From IMG/VR virus record IMGVR_UViG_2619619130_000001: 23,805 nt of DNA; one strand, given 5' to 3'. The notes below the pieces were generated by a model that saw nothing but the letters and a program-made list of their open reading frames with translations, was not told the origin of the DNA and did no database searches. Source of the DNA: a virus (taxonomy: Duplodnaviria; Heunggongvirae; Uroviricota; Caudoviricetes). The position numbers and the translations under genes are program-made. Positions 129 through 13,753 of this stretch are shown here, in pieces (within the stretch, counting starts at the first letter, position 1; each line of letters opens with the position of its first letter).

Positions 129-171
129 TCTATTGTCACTTTTTATCGCCACTTTTTACCCTCTATTGTCA
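129..171. repeat. Direct repeats TCTATTGTCA (129-138, 162-171) and CACTTTTTA(T/C) (137-146, 150-159); candidate integrase arm-type sites
   Basis: Short direct repeats read off the sequence next to the att core; they overlap the 3' end of int. Confidence 0.3.
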
Positions 172-1157
172 AAAGGGTTCAATTCAACTGCAGCCTCTAA
201 ATGACCTGGAGCAAAATGCGCATAACGCATAGTCATTTTTATATCGCTATGCCCCAGTATTTTTTGCAACACAAGAATATTTCCTCCCCGCATCATAAAA
301 TGACTGGCAAACGTGTGACGTAGCACATGAGTTAATTGCCCATCAGGAAGCTCGATCTTCGCTCTCTTAATTGCAGCGTCAAAAGCCTCATAACATGGTG
401 AAAATAACGCTCCTCGTTTTTTAGGAAGCATAGCCTGCAATTGAGGTGAAATCGGTACAGTGCGGTTCTTCTTTCCTTTAGTTTTAACAAATGTGATTCG
501 ACCGGGCAGCACTTGAGATTGCTTTAATCCTTCAGCTTCACTCCACCGAGCACCAGTCGCAAGCCCAATACGGACAACAACCCCCAAATCTTTATTCCGT
601 GACTCATCACACGCAATCAGAAGGCGTTCAATCTCATCTACATACAGAAACGCCAATTCCTTTTCTTCCTCACGAAACTTGCGAATGCCAGTCAGGGGGT
701 TTTCACCAGACCACTCCCCAAGGCGCTTCAGTTCGGCAAAAACAGCATGTAGATATGACTGCTCGCGATTAACGGTTGCTTCACTAAGTTTTTTCTTCCC
801 CTTGGGATTCCATTCTCCTGATAACCTCCTTTCCCGATAAGTAGCAAACATATTTTTGTCAAACTGAGAAGCAAATGGATCTCCCAGCCTGGAACAAATA
901 GACTCAAGTTTGACTTTGCGCTCTGCACCAGAGGACAAGGTTTTACCGTACATCTCAAACCAACGAGCAACCAACTCAGAAAGACGAGGACCAGAACCAT
1001 CTTGAAACTCGTCTCCAACTCTACTATTCATTAAACGGCGCTCATAAGAGAGCGCCTCACTTTTTGTCGCAAACTGTTTACGAATACGTTTTCCCGATGC
1101 CCCGTAAGGATAACATTCGCAAAGCCATTTACCTGATGGAATCTTACGAACCGACAT
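156..1157 (-). CDS. int: Tyrosine site-specific recombinase (phage integrase)
   Basis: 333-aa ORF with C-terminal catalytic signature HVLRHTFASHFMMRGG...LGHSDIKMTMRYAHF (R..H-x-x-R..Y); sits next to the tRNA-derived att core. Confidence 0.9.
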   Translation of the reverse strand: MSVRKIPSGKWLCECYPYGASGKRIRKQFATKSEALSYERRLMNSRVGDEFQDGSGPRLSELVARWFEMYGKTLSSGAERKVKLESICSRLGDPFASQFDKNMFATYRERRLSGEWNPKGKKKLSEATVNREQSYLHAVFAELKRLGEWSGENPLTGIRKFREEEKELAFLYVDEIERLLIACDESRNKDLGVVVRIGLATGARWSEAEGLKQSQVLPGRITFVKTKGKKNRTVPISPQLQAMLPKKRGALFSPCYEAFDAAIKRAKIELPDGQLTHVLRHTFASHFMMRGGNILVLQKILGHSDIKMTMRYAHFAPGHLEAAVELNPFDNRG

Positions 1158-1162
1158 TTTAG

Positions 1163-1510
1163 TTACTTATCACATAAATCAAATGCAGCCTTAGTGACAT
1201 CTCCCAGATTCTTTTTTAACCCTGGGGCGGCATCATTATCCAGCCAAAATGGATTATTGTTATCTAACGGTAACGCACCAAATGTTTTACCTTTTATTCG
1301 AGCCAAACCTGTAAGCGCATATAACTTATTATCGTCAAAATTCATCACATAAGGATTACCATCTAGACACTGTAACTGAACCTCATCAGTATTAAATGGC
1401 CATACCCCATTGAAACTCTCACGTTCAATATTTTTAAAAGGCATTGCGACGGCAGAAAAAGAAAACATAGATAAAAAAGTAACTAATAGTTGAACATTTT
1501 TTACTTTCAT
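1163..1510 (-). CDS. Small secreted protein (predicted signal peptide, two Cys), function unknown; cargo/moron
   Basis: 115 aa; N-terminus MKVKNVQLLVTFLSMFSFSAVA looks like a Sec signal peptide; AT-rich coding DNA unlike the phage core; same strand as int and repressor. Confidence 0.6.
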   Translation of the reverse strand: MKVKNVQLLVTFLSMFSFSAVAMPFKNIERESFNGVWPFNTDEVQLQCLDGNPYVMNFDDNKLYALTGLARIKGKTFGALPLDNNNPFWLDNDAAPGLKKNLGDVTKAAFDLCDK

Positions 1511-1539
1511 ACCATTACCTCAATTTAGCTCAAGTAAGA

Positions 1540-2190
1540 TTACAAATTAAAAAACATCCTAGAAATGGCACCACCTACCACCCCCCCTACGCAGATAAAG
1601 AATATTATTTCTTTTGGATAAAGTCGGATTAATTCTGAAGCACGAAGTCGGACTTCTGGTAAGGTCGAATTCTCTGTGTTGCTTGATACCGATTGTTGCT
1701 CTAACCACGACAATGCAGACTGCAACTGAGAACGAGTAAGATCGTTTAAACGTCCTGTACCGAAATTGATATGGCAATACCGCAGAAGTTTTTGTCGAAG
1801 TCCACAGTCTTCACTGTTACGTAGTAATAAACTTACAAGAGCCTTACAGGCATCATGATCTTTACATCGCTCAAGCATTGCATGCAGAAAACTCTCCGCT
1901 GTTTTATATTGATTTACTGTCATATCATCAATACCAGCTACACCAATCTCCGCATGTACTTTTTGCCAAATAATAAACGCTTCAGTATTGCTAGCTTCTG
2001 CAATAGCAGCAACCAAGCTATTTAGCTCCTTACGCTGAGCCTTAAGCAAAGGGCGATCGTCATCATCATTATTCGAAGGGATTGCGATATTGACGGTATG
2101 AGAACCATCATATCGCCCTATCTGAATATTCTTTTCGTGAAAATCACGCCCAGCAACGCGATTGTTTGAACCGTTTGAGTTGACGGCCAT
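1540..2190 (-). CDS. Tail-anchored membrane protein (single C-terminal TM helix), function unknown; cargo/moron
   Basis: 216 aa; acidic DDDD linker; hydrophobic C-terminus IIFFICVGGVVGGAISRMFF; AT-rich; its N-terminus repeats a motif from the repressor C-terminus. Confidence 0.6.
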   Translation of the reverse strand: MAVNSNGSNNRVAGRDFHEKNIQIGRYDGSHTVNIAIPSNNDDDDRPLLKAQRKELNSLVAAIAEASNTEAFIIWQKVHAEIGVAGIDDMTVNQYKTAESFLHAMLERCKDHDACKALVSLLLRNSEDCGLRQKLLRYCHINFGTGRLNDLTRSQLQSALSWLEQQSVSSNTENSTLPEVRLRASELIRLYPKEIIFFICVGGVVGGAISRMFFNL

Positions 2191-2205: not shown

Positions 2206-2610
2206 TCACCTACCCTTAGTTTCGTTATAGTCACGCCCAGCGATACGGTTATTACCGCCAGAAATATTTAACTCACGTCCTGATGGCTGAGTTTCCTTTT
2301 CACTGGCCGCACCTTTTAAAGCCCCGATCACCGCGTTTTTCACATCTAACGAAGCTGCTCGAAAGCGAGTAATCAACTCCTGCTCATCATCGTTATAAGT
2401 TTCAGGTGAGTGAATTCCCAACACAACATACTGAACATCAAGGCCAAAACGAGACAGCGCTGCCAAATACGCAGCATCAGGAAAGCTATCTCCTTTCTCA
2501 TATCTAAGCTGAGTTAGCTTTTTGACTCCACCAATGTCGCTCATAGCAACTTGACTAAGTCCCAATCTTTCCCTTTCCTCACGCAACCTCTGACCAATAT
2601 CATTTTTCAT
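2206..2610 (-). CDS. HTH (XRE/CI-type) immunity repressor
   Basis: 134 aa; helix-turn-helix LGLSQVAMSDIGGVKKLTQLRYEKG; divergent from the rightward early operon; position equivalent to P2 C / 186 cI next to int. Confidence 0.7.
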   Translation of the reverse strand: MKNDIGQRLREERERLGLSQVAMSDIGGVKKLTQLRYEKGDSFPDAAYLAALSRFGLDVQYVVLGIHSPETYNDDEQELITRFRAASLDVKNAVIGALKGAASEKETQPSGRELNISGGNNRIAGRDYNETKGR

Positions 2611-2908: not shown

Positions 2909-3112
2909 ATGTCAGGTATAACCATCAATATCAATGTGAATGCCCCCTATGTATCCCTGCAGAAATATGCAGAGATAACAGGTATCCCTCTTAATACATG
3001 CAAAAAGATGTTGGCTGACGGTCGAATTATTATCCGACCCAAACGCGCCAAAATGGAAAAGCCTGAAGTAAACCTTGTGGCGATGTTAAAAGACGCTTTG
3101 GCTAACAGCTAA
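2909..3112 (+). CDS. Small HTH protein, possible excisionase/Cox-Apl-like regulator
   Basis: 67 aa; AGGAGG 8 nt upstream of ATG; HTH-like segment YVSLQKYAEITGIPLNTCKKMLADGRI. Confidence 0.5.
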   Translation: MSGITININVNAPYVSLQKYAEITGIPLNTCKKMLADGRIIIRPKRAKMEKPEVNLVAMLKDALANS

Positions 3113-4427: not shown

Positions 4428-4669
4428 CCATTCTGGACTACATCGCTGCCAATCCGGGTTGTAGCGGTGGAGAAATCGCCGCAGCACTGAATACACCAAC
4501 CACAACCATTAATGCGGAGCTACGCCGTCTCTGGCGCAGCGGTTCAGTCATAAGAAAAGAGCGCAAAACAGGCGGTCGCTTTTCTTATCAGGTAAACCCG
4601 ATGCCGTTTGGGTGTAGCAACCCTCTAACCCAGATGTTCAACCAGCTACTGAGAGAAATCAGAGCATGA
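4424..4669 (+). CDS. Small winged-helix DNA-binding protein
   Basis: 81 aa; MTILDYIAANPGCSGGEIAAALNTPTTTINAELRRLWRSGSV resembles wHTH regulators; AGGAG RBS; start overlaps previous stop. Confidence 0.55.
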   Translation: MTILDYIAANPGCSGGEIAAALNTPTTTINAELRRLWRSGSVIRKERKTGGRFSYQVNPMPFGCSNPLTQMFNQLLREIRA

Positions 4670-4810
4670 GCACCTCCAACTGCCGGAAACCACGTCGGGC
4701 TTCAGCAGCTCATCCGGCAGCAAAACAAACTCCGTTAATTCCTGTTCCGGGCCTTTCCTGCACCTTGCGGCAAGAGGCCTTCGCACATCTGCAACAAGAG
4801 GATTGCCGCA

Positions 4811-5176
4811 ATGATTCTCGCCGAAGACTTTTTTGATTACCTGCTGAAAACCGAGCGCGATTTTGGTATTCGCGTTCTCGACCGCTATGCAATGTATCTG
4901 AAATCACTGCCGGAACAGCAGCTCCCGGACGGCCAGATTGTTATTGACGGGCGCTACATGGTTGGTAGCTGCCAGGAGGATTACACACTTTCCCGCATCG
5001 AAAGCGGCACGCCTTCCGTACTGGGTATTTACCTGCGAACTTCATCTCTGATTGCTGATGTAATTGCTGACAGCATTCGCATAACACACCGTTATGCCAG
5101 CACAGAGAGCACCATGCAGGAAATCCAGCGGCTGGCTACCGTCTGCCACAATGCACTGAGCGGAAAGGCGGAGTAG
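4811..5176 (+). CDS. Hypothetical protein upstream of replication gene
   Basis: 121-aa ORF with plausible RBS; ends 6 nt before gene A. An alternative 56-aa ORF (4666-4836) overlaps its start. Confidence 0.45.
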   Translation: MILAEDFFDYLLKTERDFGIRVLDRYAMYLKSLPEQQLPDGQIVIDGRYMVGSCQEDYTLSRIESGTPSVLGIYLRTSSLIADVIADSIRITHRYASTESTMQEIQRLATVCHNALSGKAE

Positions 5177-8080: not shown

Positions 8081-9040
8081 ATGAAAATTTGTATCGACGA
8101 CGGCTCCACCAATATCAAGCTGGCATGGACTGAGAACGGCGAACGCCGCAACGCTATCAGCCCGAACAGCTTCAAGTCGGAATGGTCTGCGCCGTTCGGT
8201 GGCACGCAGCCCGCGAACTACATGCTTGATGGCGTGCGCTATGGTTTTGATCCGGTCAGCGATCGCTTTGTCCAGACGACCGACACGCAATACCAGTACA
8301 GCGATGTGAATGTCATTGCCATTCATCACGCGCTGGTCAAATCAGGCATCACACCACAGGAGGTGGATGTGGTTGTCACCCTGCCACTGAGCGAGTATTT
8401 CGACACAAACGCACAGCCGGACATGGCCAACATCAACCGCAAAAAAGCGAACGTTATGCGCCCGGTGGAGTACCAGAACGGCAAAGCATTCACTATCCGT
8501 AACGTACGGGTTATGCCTGAATCTATTCCGGCTGGCTTTAAAGCACTGGCTGACATGAGTCCGTTTGAATCCCTGCTGATTGTGGATTTAGGCGGAACCA
8601 CGCTGGATGTAGCAAAGGTTCAGGGACAACTGGCAGGTATCAGCCAGGTGTTTTGCGATCCACACGTAGGCGTTTCCCTGATGGCCGATGCAGTACTGTC
8701 GGTGATGGCCACTAACGGTATGCGTACCAGTCACCACATCGCCAATACCATTATCGAACATCGCCATGATGAAGCCTGGCTGCGCCAGCACATCCATAAT
8801 GACGCGCATTACGCCAGCCTGATGGCGGTTATTCGTGAAAAGGAAGAAACACTGAAACAACGCGTGATCCGCGCGCTGGCGGGTTTTTCGGGTTACGGGC
8901 GGGTGATGGTTGTCGGTGGCGGGGCGGAGATTGTGGCACCCGCTATCCGCGAAGCCTGCGGAGTTAATGCGACTTTCATCGCGGACGGGGGGCCACAGTT
9001 TGCTCTGGTTAATGGGCTGTACGCAATGGACAAGGAGTAA
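8081..9040 (+). CDS. parM: ParM/StbA-family actin-like segregation ATPase
   Basis: 319 aa; N-terminal CIDDGSTNIKLAW, SDVNVIAIHHAL, VMPESIPAG, LIVDLGGTTLDV and VMVVGGGAE motifs align along the length with plasmid R1 ParM as I remember it. Confidence 0.85.
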   Translation: MKICIDDGSTNIKLAWTENGERRNAISPNSFKSEWSAPFGGTQPANYMLDGVRYGFDPVSDRFVQTTDTQYQYSDVNVIAIHHALVKSGITPQEVDVVVTLPLSEYFDTNAQPDMANINRKKANVMRPVEYQNGKAFTIRNVRVMPESIPAGFKALADMSPFESLLIVDLGGTTLDVAKVQGQLAGISQVFCDPHVGVSLMADAVLSVMATNGMRTSHHIANTIIEHRHDEAWLRQHIHNDAHYASLMAVIREKEETLKQRVIRALAGFSGYGRVMVVGGGAEIVAPAIREACGVNATFIADGGPQFALVNGLYAMDKE

Positions 9041-9044
9041 ACCA

Positions 9045-9356
9045 ATGACGACTCCAACCAGACGGATAAGTTTCTATCTGAAGCCCGCCGCCGTCAAGAA
9101 CGAAGGAGAAGCATGCGCCTGGCTGGACAGCCTTACACCAGAAGCCCGCAAAAGCGGCCAACGCGTGGCTTTTCTGGCCGGGCTGGCACTTCTGAAAATG
9201 AATCCGGCAGAGGCTTACCGACTAGCTGCATGGGCTGATGATGAAGCGTTATCAGTGACACAAACCAGGACAGAACGCCCCGCATCACAGCCAGTATCAA
9301 CCGCACAGATAACCAGTCAGATGGCCGGAAATATCCGGGCGTTATTTCCTGAATAA
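9045..9356 (+). CDS. parR: ParR/StbB-like centromere-binding adaptor
   Basis: 104 aa from ATG 9045 (RBS AAGGAG); RRISFYLKP, WLDSLTPEARKSGQRVAFLAGLAL and C-terminal RALFPE resemble R1 ParR; directly follows parM. Confidence 0.72.
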   Translation: MTTPTRRISFYLKPAAVKNEGEACAWLDSLTPEARKSGQRVAFLAGLALLKMNPAEAYRLAAWADDEALSVTQTRTERPASQPVSTAQITSQMAGNIRALFPE

Positions 9357-9364
9357 CACAACAT

Positions 9365-9382
9365 CAGGGCGAGTTCGCCCTG
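9365..9382 (+). terminator. GC-rich stem-loop after parR (possible attenuator/terminator)
   Basis: CAGGGCG-AGTT-CGCCCTG hairpin seen directly; no clear U-tract, so weak as an intrinsic terminator. Confidence 0.3.
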
Positions 9383-9419
9383 CTCTCCACCTCAGAACAT
9401 AAACAAGGAGAACGACTTA

Positions 9420-9803
9420 ATGAGCGAAATCAACTATCAGGCATTACGTGAACGTTATTCACCTGTGCCAGTACCGAAATGCCCTATTTGCGGCGAGGAA
9501 ATGTCAATTCAGCGAATATCTGGAGCACAGGTTGTTTATGCCTGCTCCGGTTATGGTGATGATGGAGATTTCAAAATTGGTCGAACTCTTGCCGACGAAC
9601 ATTATGAAAAATCACGCGTAACAGTGTTGGATGTCGGGGATCCTGAAGTATTGGCGCTACTTGATTGGCTGGAAACCAAAGACAACCGAATCGCTGAACT
9701 GGAAAAAATCGCCACTGACTATGCACTTAAATTCCAGAAAGCACAGGACGCATTAAAGTACGCCGCTTTGCTGCATAGCAGGACAGCGCAGCTACAAGAC
9801 TAA
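9420..9803 (+). CDS. Hypothetical protein with CxxC zinc-ribbon-like motif and C-terminal coiled coil
   Basis: 127 aa; KCPICGEE...YACSG then heptad-like LDWLETKDNRIAELEKIATDYALKFQKAQDALKYAA; AAGGAG RBS; within the variable locus. Confidence 0.6.
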   Translation: MSEINYQALRERYSPVPVPKCPICGEEMSIQRISGAQVVYACSGYGDDGDFKIGRTLADEHYEKSRVTVLDVGDPEVLALLDWLETKDNRIAELEKIATDYALKFQKAQDALKYAALLHSRTAQLQD

Positions 9804-9893
9804 CTTAAAGCGGAAGATTAATACATGGTGAGTCAGGGTAATTTGTTTTTATCCCGACAAATAAACAAAAAAGTGGACTATCTCTGTAGTATC

Positions 9894-10424
9894 TTATTCA
9901 GCATCGTCTCGTGCAGTCTGTGCATACGTCACAACAACGCCCAATGCATTAGTTTTCTTTTCAACATAGATAATATTGTCATATTCATAGTTACCATACG
10001 GATAGCAAATAAGAATATTTTTATGCAGATCGGGATCATCAACAAACGCTCCGGAACAGCTTCTTGAACTACCGGATGTATACTCATACGGTGCAACATA
10101 TGATGATGTTACTCCTGGTAAAAAATAAGTCACCATCATAAGAGGGATAATCAGGAATATCCCTGTAAGAATGCAAGAGCCAGCATAAACCTTCAGGTAT
10201 TCCGACAGTCCTTTCCAGCCACTTTGCTTCACTACCCCCCTCTTCACCAGAAACAAGGAGAAGAAAAAGGACATACCCATACTACACAAGATGTAATAAT
10301 TGGATATACGCGAATTAAGATATGTAATCCTGTAGATATCTGCCCTCCACCAGTAAAAGAGGAAAATAATCCCTAGCACTGAAACAGTCATGCAAATCAA
10401 ATAAGGATATGAATCTTTCTTCAT
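9894..10424 (-). CDS. Integral membrane protein (about 3 TM helices + ~70-aa soluble C-terminal domain), function unknown; candidate exclusion/abortive-infection cargo
   Basis: 176 aa; hydrophobic segments LICMTVSVLGIIFLFYWW, YYILCSMGMSFFFSLFLV, AGSCILTGIFLIIPLMMVTYFL; strongly AT-rich unlike flanking phage DNA; convergent with the preceding gene. Confidence 0.65.
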   Translation of the reverse strand: MKKDSYPYLICMTVSVLGIIFLFYWWRADIYRITYLNSRISNYYILCSMGMSFFFSLFLVKRGVVKQSGWKGLSEYLKVYAGSCILTGIFLIIPLMMVTYFLPGVTSSYVAPYEYTSGSSRSCSGAFVDDPDLHKNILICYPYGNYEYDNIIYVEKKTNALGVVVTYAQTARDDAE

Positions 10425-10772
10425 GTCTTGCGCTCATTAAAATTTCCCTGCTACGAACAAATTTACCATCCGTTTTTTGCGCAGAAAACAGCACGATGCA
10501 CACTGCACGATAGTGCACAAATTTGCACAATTTTTTTGAACGACTTTTTACCCTTCCGGCCCGCATGGCGGCTGGATCCGTCAAGGATCCGTGCGTGCAC
10601 AAAAAAACGCGTTTTTTCTGCGCGCAGGTGACGGGGGAACAGCCCGCGTTTCAGGGGGTAAATAGCATTCCCTGAACGATGTCGCAGAGACACAACAGAA
10701 TGGCTGTATTTCTCACGCTGAGCGTGAAAAATACGTGAGGGATTCTGATTTGATGGGGTGAAAGGTAAGGCC

Positions 10773-10794
10773 GTCAAAATCGCACTGAGGCGGC
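10773..10794. other. Candidate cos (cohesive end) site
   Basis: GAGGCGGCAAAGAAC resembles the P2 cos sequence as I recall it (GGCGAGGCGGGGAAAGCAC) and lies ~165 bp beyond the Q stop, where P2 places cos. From memory, unverified. Confidence 0.3.
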
Positions 10795-12002: not shown

Positions 12003-13753
12003 CAGAACTCCATAACCGTGAAACGCTCGTTTTCTCCTTCGCCGCCAATCGGTTCGTTAATGACAGCAAGCATGGTTGCCCACGCAAGGTCGCCGTGGCT
12101 GATCCCCCTCGCGCGGTCCGTTTCGTAAGTGATGAAGCCGCCCGGTGTTTTCACCTTACGCACGGCGTTAAAGGCCGCGACCAGCTCGCGTTCGGCGCGA
12201 TCGTATTCCCACCGCCCGGCACGCATTATTTGCAGCATTTTCAGTACCAGCGACCGTTTTGATGACAGCGTGAAGGTGTACGGAATAGCAGCAGGGAAAA
12301 ACCGTTTCACTATCTGATAAACAGCCTCCCCGTTCCCGCCCGTCACATCAATGCCGATGTGTTCCACGTTGTAGCGACACGTGAACTCTTCAATGACTCT
12401 GGCCTGTTCTTCAAACTCCAGCCCCTGAACGCGTCGCGTCTCCACCGTTCGAAAACGGCCACCAGGAACAGCCGGAGGAACCACCACGGACACAGCGCCG
12501 CTGTCGCCGTTGCCACTGCTGCCGTTTGCGTCATACCCAATCCATACCGGACGATTCCCCATCGGGCGGGGAGCAAAAGGTTTCCAGTCTTTCCAGTCGT
12601 CGTATCCGTCAACGCCACAGCCAATCAGGATATTCAGGTTAAATGCCGATTCCCCTTCGCGGACAAACTCACACATATAGAGATTGAGGAACTCGTCTTC
12701 GGTGTTTTCATCACGAATTTCGTTGATATCGGTGTGTTTCCAGCCGTGATTAACCACATCTTCCAGCGTGACAATTTGCCGCCACGTCCTGTCAGAGCAG
12801 ATAAGCCCGTTATGCAGCGTTTTCCAGTCCACAGAAAAACGCTGGCGTTTATGCGAGGCCTTTTTCTCGTTCCAGCGGTCGCCGTTCCAGTAGGCGTATG
12901 CCTCGTGCGTTTCGGTGGATGGCGTGGAGAAGTAGGTGCGCCGCAGTCCGCTGAGGGTTGCCATAGCGCCAGCCACCTTGCGCAGTTCAGCAAAGCGACT
13001 GACCCAGAAAAATTCATCAAAATAAAAATTGCCCGTATAGGACTGTGCCGACGCAGCAGAAGTGCCGAGAAAATGCAGCTCTGCGCCGTTGGAGAGGATG
13101 ATTTTATCGCCCCCTTTCAGCTCGACATCAACTTCAGCCGCGGCCTTCTGAATAATGCTTTTAAACTGGAACGCCTGACGACGCGACGCAGACAAAAAAA
13201 TCTGGTTACGCTGGTAAGGCTGCGCCACATCGTCACGCAGCGCCATCAGCAGTGCTTCCTGCGCAAAATACCATGTCGCCCCAATCTGTCGGGATTTCAG
13301 GATCATCCTGTTACGTATCCCGGCTTCCCTGCAAAGGGTCAGGGAGTCAAACCAGCCCCGCTGATGCCACTCCAGCCTGCTGATGATTTTTTCCCGCAGT
13401 GCGGCAATCTGTTCCGGCGTGAAATGATTCTTGAGCTTTTTCGCCCGGCCTTTCTTTCCTGTGGCCGTTGCATCCGGCTGGCCATCATGCAGTTTTTTAA
13501 GCTGCCGGGTCAGCAGGTCTATTTCCTTGAAGTCACCACCTGTTTTATTCTGTTTTTCAGTAAGCTGGATGAGGCGCGCATCGATGGACTGCGTGACACG
13601 CTGCACGGGTGGCGTTTCATCCCACTGGTCGCGTTTTTTCCACGCATAAATCGTGTTCGGGTTTATTCCCATCAGACGTGATATTTCTGCGGGCGGATAA
13701 CCCTGCCAGTAAAGTTGCCGCGCACGCTGGCGCACAAAAGCGTCCTGAATCAT
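12002..13753 (-). CDS. P: Terminase large (ATPase) subunit (P2 gpP family)
   Basis: 583 aa; N-terminal HTH YWQGYPPAEISRLMGINPNTIYAWKKRD and ATPase region KSRQIGATWYFAQEA; size and position as P2 P. Confidence 0.9.
   Translation of the reverse strand: MIQDAFVRQRARQLYWQGYPPAEISRLMGINPNTIYAWKKRDQWDETPPVQRVTQSIDARLIQLTEKQNKTGGDFKEIDLLTRQLKKLHDGQPDATATGKKGRAKKLKNHFTPEQIAALREKIISRLEWHQRGWFDSLTLCREAGIRNRMILKSRQIGATWYFAQEALLMALRDDVAQPYQRNQIFLSASRRQAFQFKSIIQKAAAEVDVELKGGDKIILSNGAELHFLGTSAASAQSYTGNFYFDEFFWVSRFAELRKVAGAMATLSGLRRTYFSTPSTETHEAYAYWNGDRWNEKKASHKRQRFSVDWKTLHNGLICSDRTWRQIVTLEDVVNHGWKHTDINEIRDENTEDEFLNLYMCEFVREGESAFNLNILIGCGVDGYDDWKDWKPFAPRPMGNRPVWIGYDANGSSGNGDSGAVSVVVPPAVPGGRFRTVETRRVQGLEFEEQARVIEEFTCRYNVEHIGIDVTGGNGEAVYQIVKRFFPAAIPYTFTLSSKRSLVLKMLQIMRAGRWEYDRAERELVAAFNAVRKVKTPGGFITYETDRARGISHGDLAWATMLAVINEPIGGEGENERFTVMEF

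Follow-up and report, generated by a model that had tools for sequence, protein, structure and literature searches.

A Flk_N-domain membrane protein encoded beside the repressor of P2-like and Mu-like prophages carries a motif resembling the repressor tail, next to a variable slot for passenger genes

The DNA described here, called the window (the whole stretch of 23,805 nucleotides in IMG/VR record IMGVR_UViG_2619619130_000001), comes from a P2-like E. coli prophage that is integrated at yecA, and the record is classed in the Peduoviridae, genus Xuanwuvirus. Genes for the repressor, a 216-aa protein, a 115-aa protein and the integrase form a tight operon on its minus strand, and the positions of these genes, and of the features within and around them, are as follows.

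156 to 1157, minus strand: tyrosine integrase of P2 type, encoded by the last gene of the lysogeny operon (Pfam Int_N, 8.5e-32; Phage_integrase, 2.5e-22)
1163 to 1510, minus strand: secreted DUF2511/YebY-family protein of 115 aa, a swappable cargo gene (signal peptide at about residues 1-22; Cys48-Cys113)
1540 to 2190, minus strand: tail-anchored protein of 216 aa with a Flk_N domain, the conserved gene for a putative repressor partner (phrog_5825, 6e-101)
1546 to 1617, minus strand: C-terminal transmembrane (TM) anchor of the Flk_N protein, residues 192-215 (from hydropathy and an AF2 helix)
1672 to 2058, minus strand: all-helical core of the Flk_N protein, residues 45-173
2134 to 2172, minus strand: N-terminal motif of the Flk_N protein, residues 7-19 (GSNNRVAGRDFHE), resembling the repressor tail
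2206 to 2610, minus strand: immunity repressor (134 aa, XRE-type HTH), encoded by the first gene of the operon
2221 to 2268, minus strand: C-terminal tail motif of the repressor, residues 115-130 (NISGGNNRIAGRDYNE)
2611 to 2685, no strand: switch region, flanked by the repressor operon and the divergent early operon; a rightward promoter-like site occupies 2620-2648

The promoter-like site is on the plus strand (TTGACA-17-CAAAAT, 10 of 12 matches), and beyond the switch region lie an Arc-like gene (2686-2892) and then a Cox-like gene (2909-3112). The repressor and integrase genes are co-directional with each other and divergent from cox, as in the C-int lysogenic operon of P2-type phages, but C of P2 lies directly beside int, whereas here the interval 1163-2190, with two genes, separates them. 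A previous sequence-only reading of this DNA had proposed both of these minus-strand genes, in the same direction as the repressor and integrase genes, and the positions and strands of the ORFs confirm this. The intergenic gaps, going from int toward the repressor, are 5, 29 and 15 nt, with the 5 nt separating the stop codon of the DUF2511 gene from the start of int, and a Shine-Dalgarno sequence (GGGAGG) is located upstream of the 216-aa gene. Because the spacing is so tight, we infer that the two genes are co-transcribed with the repressor, in agreement with the earlier proposal. No terminator was found between genes in the window's operon, and the sole terminator-like hairpin (1561-1585) was treated as coincidental, since it lies inside the segment coding for the TM anchor. 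The AT-richness previously ascribed to the two genes was upheld in part. GC content rises from 0.348 in the DUF2511 gene to 0.413 in the 216-aa gene, 0.445 in int and 0.447 in the repressor gene, with 0.525 for the window; the whole lysogeny operon is AT-rich, and among its neighbors only the DUF2511 gene stands out.

Prophages of this type, Sp13/CP-933T, are present in ∼9% (about one in eleven) of complete E. coli genomes, and the pair of genes was found at 95% identity or more in 506 of 5426 such genomes, with carriers of the operon including O157:H7 (Sp13/CP-933T) and other STEC strains. Relatives of the operon are common in Klebsiella, Enterobacter, Salmonella, Serratia and Pectobacterium, and both the 216-aa and the 115-aa proteins have homologues in genera other than Escherichia. 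Matches in the phage collection came from two records of phage 520873, with frameshifts in both genes, and beyond this phage there were only distant matches to the 216-aa protein, in three Ralstonia phages.

The topologies that had been described for the two products, tail-anchored for the 216-aa protein, and secreted with two cysteines for the 115-aa protein, were both recovered. For the 216-aa protein, hydropathy averaged over 19 residues is highest from residue 195 onward (mean KD 2.0), and the AF2 model places a helix at residues 192-215, ending one residue short of the C-terminus. The TM helix is preceded by a conserved YP, and Y191 together with a G202/G206 pattern is conserved. AF2 pLDDT is 51-59 for residues 1-40, within a segment (residues 1-44) predicted to be disordered, and 96-98 for the helical core. 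The protein thus faces the cytoplasm, with a disordered N-terminus, a helical, protein-binding Flk_N core and a C-terminal TM helix, and in the model it would have essentially no periplasmic part.

Both the Flk_N domain and the C-terminal tail anchor of Flk (Fluke/RflH) are present in the 216-aa protein, which resembles Flk of Salmonella and E. coli in its helical domain, cytoplasmic face and single C-terminal TM anchor (PMC13344023). However, Flk has ∼333 aa with two Flk_N copies and a Q/P-rich linker, while the window protein has a single copy in 216 aa, carries an N-terminal NRxAGRD motif, and is encoded by a prophage beside the repressor. Accordingly, the NCBIfam Flk profile (NF007987) gives 4e-16 and 59.2 bits, compared with an equivalog cut-off of 353, and aligns only to residues 36-169 (profile positions 19-152 of 339), so that the 216-aa protein is not a full-length Flk equivalog (∼330 aa, two Flk_N-like regions). 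The Flk_N assignment itself, PF27202, was precomputed on cluster representatives 96-97% identical to the 216-aa protein. The protein falls in a family of short Flk_N proteins that have the conserved N-terminal motif, which is missing from true Flk; Klebsiella and Raoultella prophages carry this family very often (P0100, on 754 contigs). In fold, the core resembles ∼60-aa phage modules that bind proteins or peptides, such as the Red-beta C-terminal domain with the SSB tail and the Sak C-domain, although these matches span only ∼60 residues and represent generic helical modules. A structure search of BFVD produced no match at E ≤ 1e-3 for the Flk_N protein, and only suggestive ones to ORF6C, RecT and Bro-N proteins, and profile matches to Ant families were weak (residues 49-108, phrog_245, 0.004).

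At its N-terminus the 115-aa protein has a hydrophobic segment that ends in AVA|M, and its only two cysteines are C48 and C113. It matches Pfam DUF2511 (PF10709) at 25.7 bits (gathering cut-off 21), with residues 29-113 aligned to profile positions 3-87 of 87, and in an alignment of DUF2511 proteins (A5), W37 and C48 are invariant and C113 is nearly so. The AF2 model (pLDDT 73.8) has YebY 7n0j (E 5.5e-4, TMt 0.72), MlbQ 2mvo and 6qfp as its top three PDB fold matches, followed by a match at E 0.65. It therefore shares a signal peptide, W37, Cys48-Cys113 and fold with YebY of the E. coli AZY operon and with the lantibiotic self-resistance lipoprotein MlbQ (PMC8689200), and the residues reported for YebY, Trp37 and the two cysteines of its Cys48-Cys113 disulfide, have counterparts at identical positions in the 115-aa protein (PMC8689200). 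In contrast, identity to YebY is only ∼27%, and the gene occupies a cargo slot of a prophage, with Flk_N on one side and a phage integrase gene on the other, rather than lying in the copper operon, AZY (yobA-yebZ-yebY), so the 115-aa protein is a member of the DUF2511 family and not a YebY orthologue. It has already been noted that Enterobacteriaceae have yebY homologues flanked by a recombinase on one side and a CI-type phage repressor on the other (PMC8689200). The protein was detected in the proteome of an uninduced O157:H7 lysogen, and expression is established for it and for the repressor. These features identify a Sec-exported protein of YebY/MlbQ fold, made in the lysogen and with a predicted disulfide bond, which, by likeness to MlbQ, probably binds a periplasmic ligand.

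Loci related to this operon were collected from genomes and IMG/VR in a scan that used alignment A3; a genome scan with a single protein gave no relatives. Across ∼90-100 such loci the gene order is repressor, Flk_N, variable slot and int, and the gap between repressor and Flk_N is 2-18 nt in nearly all of them. The pair is also present in Mu-like prophages, and at all loci with enough flanking sequence an HTH repressor gene lies immediately upstream of Flk_N or adjacent to it. Two arrangements were exceptional, one with an extra gene and a terminator between repressor and Flk_N (L105), and one, in a Ralstonia phage, with the two genes convergent (L101), indicating that operon linkage of the pair is not obligatory. 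The Flk_N gene is thus a fixed part of the immunity module across a wide range of temperate phages, both P2-like and Mu-like.

The interval from Flk_N to int is, by comparison, variable. It measures 322-1850 bp in all but two degraded symbiont loci, and holds at least eight unrelated gene families among the related loci, with DUF2511 being one of them and occurring in a minority of lineages only. Other contents are DUF8087, BRCT proteins, a 244-aa membrane protein, a pair of zinc-ribbon and coiled-coil proteins, or nothing, and the slots of relatives hold BRCT and TIR proteins. At two loci (L062 and L063) whose repressors are 93-94% identical to that of the window, DUF8087 nevertheless takes the place of DUF2511, and the cargo families are also present in prophages without Flk_N. 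P2-like phages have variable cargo slots as well, but the slot described here is inside the lysogeny operon, where a conserved extra gene precedes it, and is distinct from the old/tin position of P2, which in the window holds ParM/ParR. The gene at 1163-1510 is an independent passenger (moron) in this slot.

The C-terminal tail of the repressor and the disordered N-terminus of the Flk_N protein have a peptide in common, NR[IV]AGRD[YF]. Alignment of the two segments in the window gave a score of 62, compared with 21 ± 4.2 for shuffled sequences. Wherever an enteric P2-like Flk_N gene follows a repressor, that repressor has the tail motif, as do 48 of the 120 repressor homologues listed, while tail-less relatives of the repressor (P0334 and P0342) belong to P2-like prophages that have no Flk_N gene. 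When P2-like and Mu-like phages were considered together, the motifs fell into eight classes with a summed cognate score of 357, and only 3 of the 40,320 permutations reached this sum. Two loci (L111 and L113) have HTH domains close to that of the window, with differing tails that match their own Flk_N proteins. The co-variation holds at the level of class, since within the "GDVG" group the cognate pairs were indistinguishable from non-cognate pairs. The NRxAGRD class is common to many enteric phages with different HTH domains, and the motif is therefore not a determinant of immunity specificity. From comparison of these sequences, the peptide has diversified in step in the repressor and in the Flk_N protein.

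We considered whether the resemblance might arise at the DNA level, as a short direct repeat at the gene junction produced by duplication or gene conversion, or maintained as a DNA or RNA site. The two segments in the window are ∼80 bp apart and contain an identical 11-nt stretch (GCTGGGCGTGA), as such an explanation would predict. However, among 36 distinct locus pairs, the 8-residue core of tail and N-terminus has 77% amino acid identity, and the same codon is used at only 35% of the identical residues, with Arg and Gly codons varying freely. This codon divergence indicates selection on the protein rather than a DNA repeat, and the motifs also match in L105, where the genes are apart, and in L101, where they are convergent. 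The DNA-level explanation was rejected on the codon analysis and is largely refuted; we regard it as extremely improbable.

We favor the reading, with a probability of roughly 0.6, that the interval 1163-2190 holds two functionally separate things, a Flk_N gene coupled to the repressor and a passenger cargo gene. The sequence-only reading had instead treated the two products as one imported two-component envelope system acting in exclusion, defence or lysogenic conversion. In its favor, the two genes are neighbors in the same orientation, with one product located in the membrane and the other exported, the DUF2511 gene is the most AT-rich of the operon, and every phage-type DUF2511 gene that was located adjoins a Flk_N gene. 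However, co-occurrence fails in the other direction, because Flk_N is constant while its neighbor is exchanged among at least eight families, or is missing, so that the pair is often split and DUF2511 is absent beside most Flk_N lineages, an outcome that the sequence-only reading had itself named as refuting it. Closely similar repressors accompanied by DUF8087, and cargo families found without Flk_N, also count against a single system, as does an N-terminus on the Flk_N protein that co-varies with the repressor and not with the cargo. Since the Flk_N protein is predicted to have essentially no periplasmic segment, its contact with a periplasmic partner would be unlikely. The suggested defence role was not borne out either, since neither protein matches any PADLOC defence model (no family in PADLOC-DB 2.0 at E ≤ 1), and the alternative slot cargo gave only weak matches. 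We conclude that the DUF2511 gene is an ordinary, expressed passenger and not half of a system, and consider the two-component explanation very unlikely.

Two further explanations give the Flk_N protein a different role. It might act on the host or on an invading phage, as a stand-alone superinfection exclusion or host modulation protein, for example by mimicking Flk to keep the flagellar export gate in early mode, with the shared motif being incidental. The Flk_N domain and tail-anchor topology common to it and Flk would fit such a role, as would the annotation of phrog_6521 as a moron membrane protein, and genes co-transcribed with a repressor are often exclusion genes, such as lambda rexAB. 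Flk blocks the flagellar secretion switch, and has been tested against FlhA-C (PMC13344023). On the other hand, true Flk has no N-terminal motif and has two Flk_N-like copies in ∼330-400 aa, and this explanation accounts neither for the class-matched co-variation nor for the lack of Flk_N beside tail-less repressors. In addition, the genera Klebsiella and Raoultella, in which the short Flk_N family abounds, are typically non-flagellate, and we set the flagellar target aside because of this host range and the co-variation with the repressor; a host or phage target in general seems unlikely. Alternatively, the shared motif might be a handle for a third party, such as a protease or chaperone of the host (FtsH, Lon, ClpXP, DnaK) or a phage antirepressor, with the Flk_N N-terminus serving as a membrane decoy or competitor that buffers repressor turnover without direct contact. 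Like degrons, both motifs are in disordered segments at protein termini, and the Mu repressor is controlled by ClpXP through its C-terminal tail; induction of Sp13 by mitomycin, and the epsilon-like derepression gene of that prophage, point the same way. Yet this derepression gene is absent from the window and from strain H3, where the motif is intact, a decoy would not explain the need for a conserved helical core and a membrane anchor, and a conserved host reader should fix one motif per host, while Pectobacterium has both NRVAGRD and FNG..GQF classes. We judge a third-party handle to be quite unlikely.

Returning to the preferred reading, the Flk_N protein may be a membrane-tethered partner or regulator of the repressor, a role to which the observed link between the motifs points, with contact, and the direction of any regulation, being the conjectural steps. 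The two proteins would meet through the shared motif, either because the motifs of the repressor tail and the Flk_N N-terminus pair with each other, or because the two are rivals for a single phage-specific site, for which the helical core of Flk_N is the most plausible location; in the AF2 monomer the N-terminal motif is not docked onto this core (pLDDT 51-59). The Flk_N protein would then tether, titrate or gate the repressor at the inner membrane, and this gating would set the stability of lysogeny, or induction, in phages whose repressors cannot be cleaved through RecA. Sp13, the O157 copy of the prophage, is inducible by mitomycin although its repressor has no peptidase domain (PMC2669165). 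More tentatively, and with the odds in our estimate against it, this may be a lysis-lysogeny control of an undescribed type, in which a tail-anchored protein of the inner membrane captures or releases the repressor by means of a co-evolving copy of the repressor tail. The state of the membrane would then bear on how P2-like and Mu-like prophages, with their repressors lacking a peptidase domain, are maintained or induced, or else the repressor would be placed at the site of DNA entry. Our literature search found no prophage Flk-like, tail-anchored or membrane-anchored repressor partner, and no repressor-Flk_N module.

Known systems offer partial parallels. The rexA-rexB genes of lambda, co-transcribed with cI from PRM, are likewise accessory genes directly after a repressor, expressed in the lysogen, with one membrane product, and the Rex proteins have a reported effect on the lysogenic-lytic switch besides exclusion. 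However, there is no relation to them in sequence or fold, and the Rex proteins have no terminal motif in common with cI. The proposed model also has a likeness to antirepressors (P22 Ant, 186 Tum, P4 epsilon, VP882 Qtip) and to membrane sequestration (Mlc by PtsG, anti-sigma factors), in that a small phage protein would bind the repressor away from the DNA-binding domain and remove it from DNA, and the weak Ant-family profile matches and the ORF6C/Bro-type fold matches of the Flk_N protein add to this likeness. In contrast to antirepressors, the Flk_N gene is in the repressor's own operon and not under lytic or SOS control, and its product is membrane-anchored and would recognize the repressor by mimicry of its tail.

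These results correct the reading of the DUF2511 gene, which is a passenger rather than one half of a system with the Flk_N gene, and they define a cargo slot inside the lysogeny operon, reaching from the Flk_N gene to int, whose contents (DUF2511, DUF8087, BRCT and membrane proteins) are candidates for functions in lysogenic conversion or defence. For P2-like and Mu-like prophages whose repressors are not cleavable, silencing and induction are poorly understood, and a conserved membrane partner with a terminus resembling the repressor tail would provide a concrete and easily testable handle on both.

The window is a P2-like prophage whose integration site adjoins yecA; over the first 3.2 kb it shares 99% identity with Escherichia phage 520873 (Peduoviridae, genus Xuanwuvirus). 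All four genes of its lysogeny operon are on the minus strand and are arranged as follows.

2206-2610, XRE-type HTH repressor, 134 aa
1540-2190, minus strand, Flk_N ORF, 216 aa
1163-1510, minus strand, DUF2511 ORF, 115 aa
156-1157, tyrosine integrase (int)

From repressor to int, the intergenic gaps are 15, 29 and 5 nt, a ribosome-binding site (GGGAGG) lies 5' of the 216-aa gene, and no terminator was found between the four genes; Arc-like and Cox-like genes diverge from the operon. The sequence-only reading had described two extra co-directional genes between repressor and int, encoding a tail-anchored protein and a secreted, two-cysteine protein, and this description holds: the only hydrophobic helix of the 216-aa product lies at its very C-terminus, and the 115-aa product has a signal-peptide-like N-terminus and two cysteines. 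The AT-richness ascribed to this pair is real, but it pertains to the whole operon (GC 0.41-0.45 in the repressor, 216-aa gene and int, versus 0.525 for the window), with the 115-aa gene (0.348) as the sole outlier.

Within the TM-coding part of the Flk_N gene, a terminator-like G/T-rich hairpin with a T run is present on the coding strand (1561-1585); it probably arises simply from the Gly/Val-rich TM sequence, but could dampen read-through towards the cargo gene and int. The repressor and Flk_N gene share a reading frame, with three consecutive stops (TGA TAG TAG) followed by GGA GGT GAC and the ATG of the Flk_N gene (2191-2208). This relation is probably incidental, because it is not kept in other loci, which show gaps of 2, 8, 9, 11, 13, 15 or 18 nt.

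Outside the operon, positions 1-49 match termini or attP regions of unrelated phages at 96-100% identity (the annotated attP of mEp390, Pectobacterium ZF40, and several vB_EcoM phages). They probably form the shared att core of the junction on the yecA side, where ARAGORN detected no tRNA gene. A plasmid-type partition cassette, at the P2 position of old/tin, occupies 8081-10777 and separates replication gene A from the portal gene.

8081-9040, ParM (StbA_N, 4e-82, plus ParM C-terminal domain)
8910-9356, Plasmid_stab_B/ParR-like ORF
9420-9803, Ead/Ea22-like gene, after the partition genes
9894-10424 and 10463-10777, minus strand, two unknown ORFs

PADLOC returned no matches in this interval, and the cassette points to an episomal phase or to a role in stabilisation. 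In the O157:H7 prophage copy (L119), the early operon includes a gene for a P4-epsilon-like derepression protein (13216-13446). This gene is missing from the window and from strain H3, which have an ash-family remnant in its place (window 4669-4811).

The 115-aa protein matches Pfam DUF2511 above the gathering score and also matches the crystal-structure sequence of E. coli YebY, sharing with it the published positions of Trp37 and of the Cys48/Cys113 pair. Its AF2 model (pLDDT 73.8) found convincing PDB matches only in YebY and MlbQ, a lantibiotic-immunity protein. Because the gene is located outside the yobA-yebZ copper operon, its product belongs to the family without being the YebY orthologue. 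The YebY paper (PMC8689200) briefly mentions homologues in Enterobacteriaceae that have a recombinase on one side and a phage CI-type repressor on the other. The gene belongs to a known family, of which it is an ordinary member located in a prophage cargo slot, and this context is already in print.

To compare operons, loci were gathered by looking up proteins and by scanning genomes and IMG/VR, and were annotated by script. Gene order was repressor, Flk_N, slot, int in every locus collected, with a repressor-Flk_N gap of 2-18 nt in nearly all, and a slot of 322-1850 bp except in two degraded symbiont loci. Slot content varied by lineage: DUF2511 (the window's lineage and three others), a DUF8087 family (85-108 aa), two families of BRCT-containing proteins (288-298 aa), a 244-aa membrane protein, a zinc-ribbon and coiled-coil/TM pair, singletons, or nothing on that strand. 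Two loci (L062, L063) carry DUF8087 although their repressors are 93-94% identical to the window's, and P2-like prophages without any Flk_N gene carry the same cargo families. DUF2511 is therefore one interchangeable passenger, and the Flk_N gene is the constant companion of the repressor. The proposal that the 216-aa and 115-aa proteins form a two-component envelope system is contradicted both by this lack of co-occurrence and by their topology; neither protein matches a PADLOC defence model.

Among other cargo, the BRCT proteins are frequent after Flk_N (L003 5647-6513; L070 4661-5539; L103 3990-4862), one family having weak WYL-like matches and the other a weak PDC-S48 match. In a Mu-like phage with such a protein, a TIR_2 protein is encoded two genes downstream, and these proteins are possible defence cargo. 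A conserved unit found with and without Flk_N (L108 3357-4132; also L069, L077, L090 and L091) encodes a 117-aa CxxC...CxxC zinc-ribbon-like protein and a 140-aa coiled-coil protein whose C-terminus forms a TM helix, and looks more like a genuine two-gene system than the 216-aa/115-aa pair does.

The 216-aa protein is assigned to phrog_5825, and its homologues carry the recent Pfam family PF27202 (Flk_N). An exhaustive search recovered only 93 representatives at 50% clustering, most of ∼190-215 aa, the remainder including true Flk (∼330-400 aa). The AF2 model (mean pLDDT 86) comprises a disordered N-terminus (residues 1-44), a very confident helical core (45-173) and the terminal TM helix (192-215). 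About 60 core residues resemble small phage protein- or peptide-binding modules: NinB, the C-domain of Sak annealase (from a structure with the Stl repressor bound), the C-terminal domain of Red-beta (also when bound to the SSB tail peptide) and DnaD; matches to viral ORF6C, Bro-N and RecT structures were weak.

The window's repressor ends in NISGGNNRIAGRDYNETKGR and its Flk_N protein begins with MAVNSNGSNNRVAGRDFHEKNIQ, giving a local alignment score of 62, versus 21 ± 4.2 for shuffled tails. This match was present in every enteric P2-like locus, where HTH domains are merely 35-55% identical. More distant phages have other versions of the motif, but the two proteins change together.

Repressor tails and Flk_N N-termini in divergent loci
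L102, Mu-like: VGQYIEGSVN; VGQVAEGDIN
L103, Mu-like: QQFNGPVGTVTTGDVVN; QQFHGAVEQVAAGDIKN
L105, P2-like: VVHGDVGQTVKGNV; IIHGDVGIVAEGDV
L106, short metagenome contig: GNVIKGNVTV; GNVVSGSVNI
L111, Pectobacterium, Mu-like: QIFNGDISGQFAGNQIIN; QEFNGTAQGQFSSRDIIN
L113, Gilliamella, Mu-like: GQIAGGNIY; EQIAGRDIY
L101, Ralstonia, P2-like: GGSNNVQIGSV; DGNGNVQIGKV

Across eight motif classes, cognate scores summed to 357 (non-cognate mean, 24.8 per pair), a sum reached by only 3 of 40,320 permutations, with cognates inside the GDVG-like group not resolved from one another. The HTH domains of L111 and L113 are near the window's, but their tails fit their own Flk_N proteins, and two tail-less relatives of the window repressor (P0334, P0342) come from prophages without Flk_N. 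The motif is absent from true Flk. In 36 distinct locus pairs, the eight-residue core was 77% identical between the two proteins, with the same codon at only 35% of identical residues; conservation acts at the protein level, and a DNA-level repeat is refuted. A Salmonella enterica contig (L115, 767-2801) has three tandem HTH repressor paralogues (141, 124 and 121 aa) ahead of one Flk_N gene, two keeping an NRVAGRDYNE tail and the third having a degenerate one.

The Flk_N protein is cytoplasm-facing, membrane-anchored, encoded with the repressor, and evolves in step with the repressor tail. Flk shares its domain and topology, but the 216-aa protein matches no more of the NCBIfam Flk model than its N-terminal 150 residues, fails the equivalog test by a wide margin, and has a different genomic context. 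Reading it as a Flk mimic acting on flagellar export, or as a stand-alone exclusion protein, leaves the tail co-variation unaccounted for, and the short Flk_N family is abundant in prophages of Klebsiella and Raoultella, which are typically non-flagellate. That the motif is a degron, or a decoy, for a host protease or antirepressor is possible but disfavoured, given its diversity within one host and the absence of an epsilon-like derepression gene from the window. Since one host genus has different motif classes, the motif is more likely read by a phage-encoded factor than by a conserved one of the host.

We infer that repressor and Flk_N protein communicate through the common motif. The two copies may pair with each other, or may compete for one site, most plausibly the Flk_N helical core, a fold that appears to serve elsewhere in gripping terminal peptides and repressors; the AF2 monomer model left the motif undocked. 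At the membrane, the repressor would be tethered, titrated, or released in a gated manner, with a stabilising or an inducing outcome. The two genes do not always form one operon (L105, L101). The closest functional likeness is to accessory genes of immunity operons (lambda rexAB), antirepressors and membrane sequestration systems, but the 216-aa gene lies inside the repressor's own operon and its product copies the repressor tail. We class it as a repressor-partner gene of temperate phages. No description of the module was found in the full-text literature searched, and we give it roughly a one-in-four chance of being a genuinely new mechanism of control. Mitomycin induces Sp13, the O157:H7 copy of this prophage type, in an unexplained way, even though the Sp13 repressor has no peptidase domain (PMC2669165); the proposed coupling of Flk_N protein and repressor would bear on this induction.
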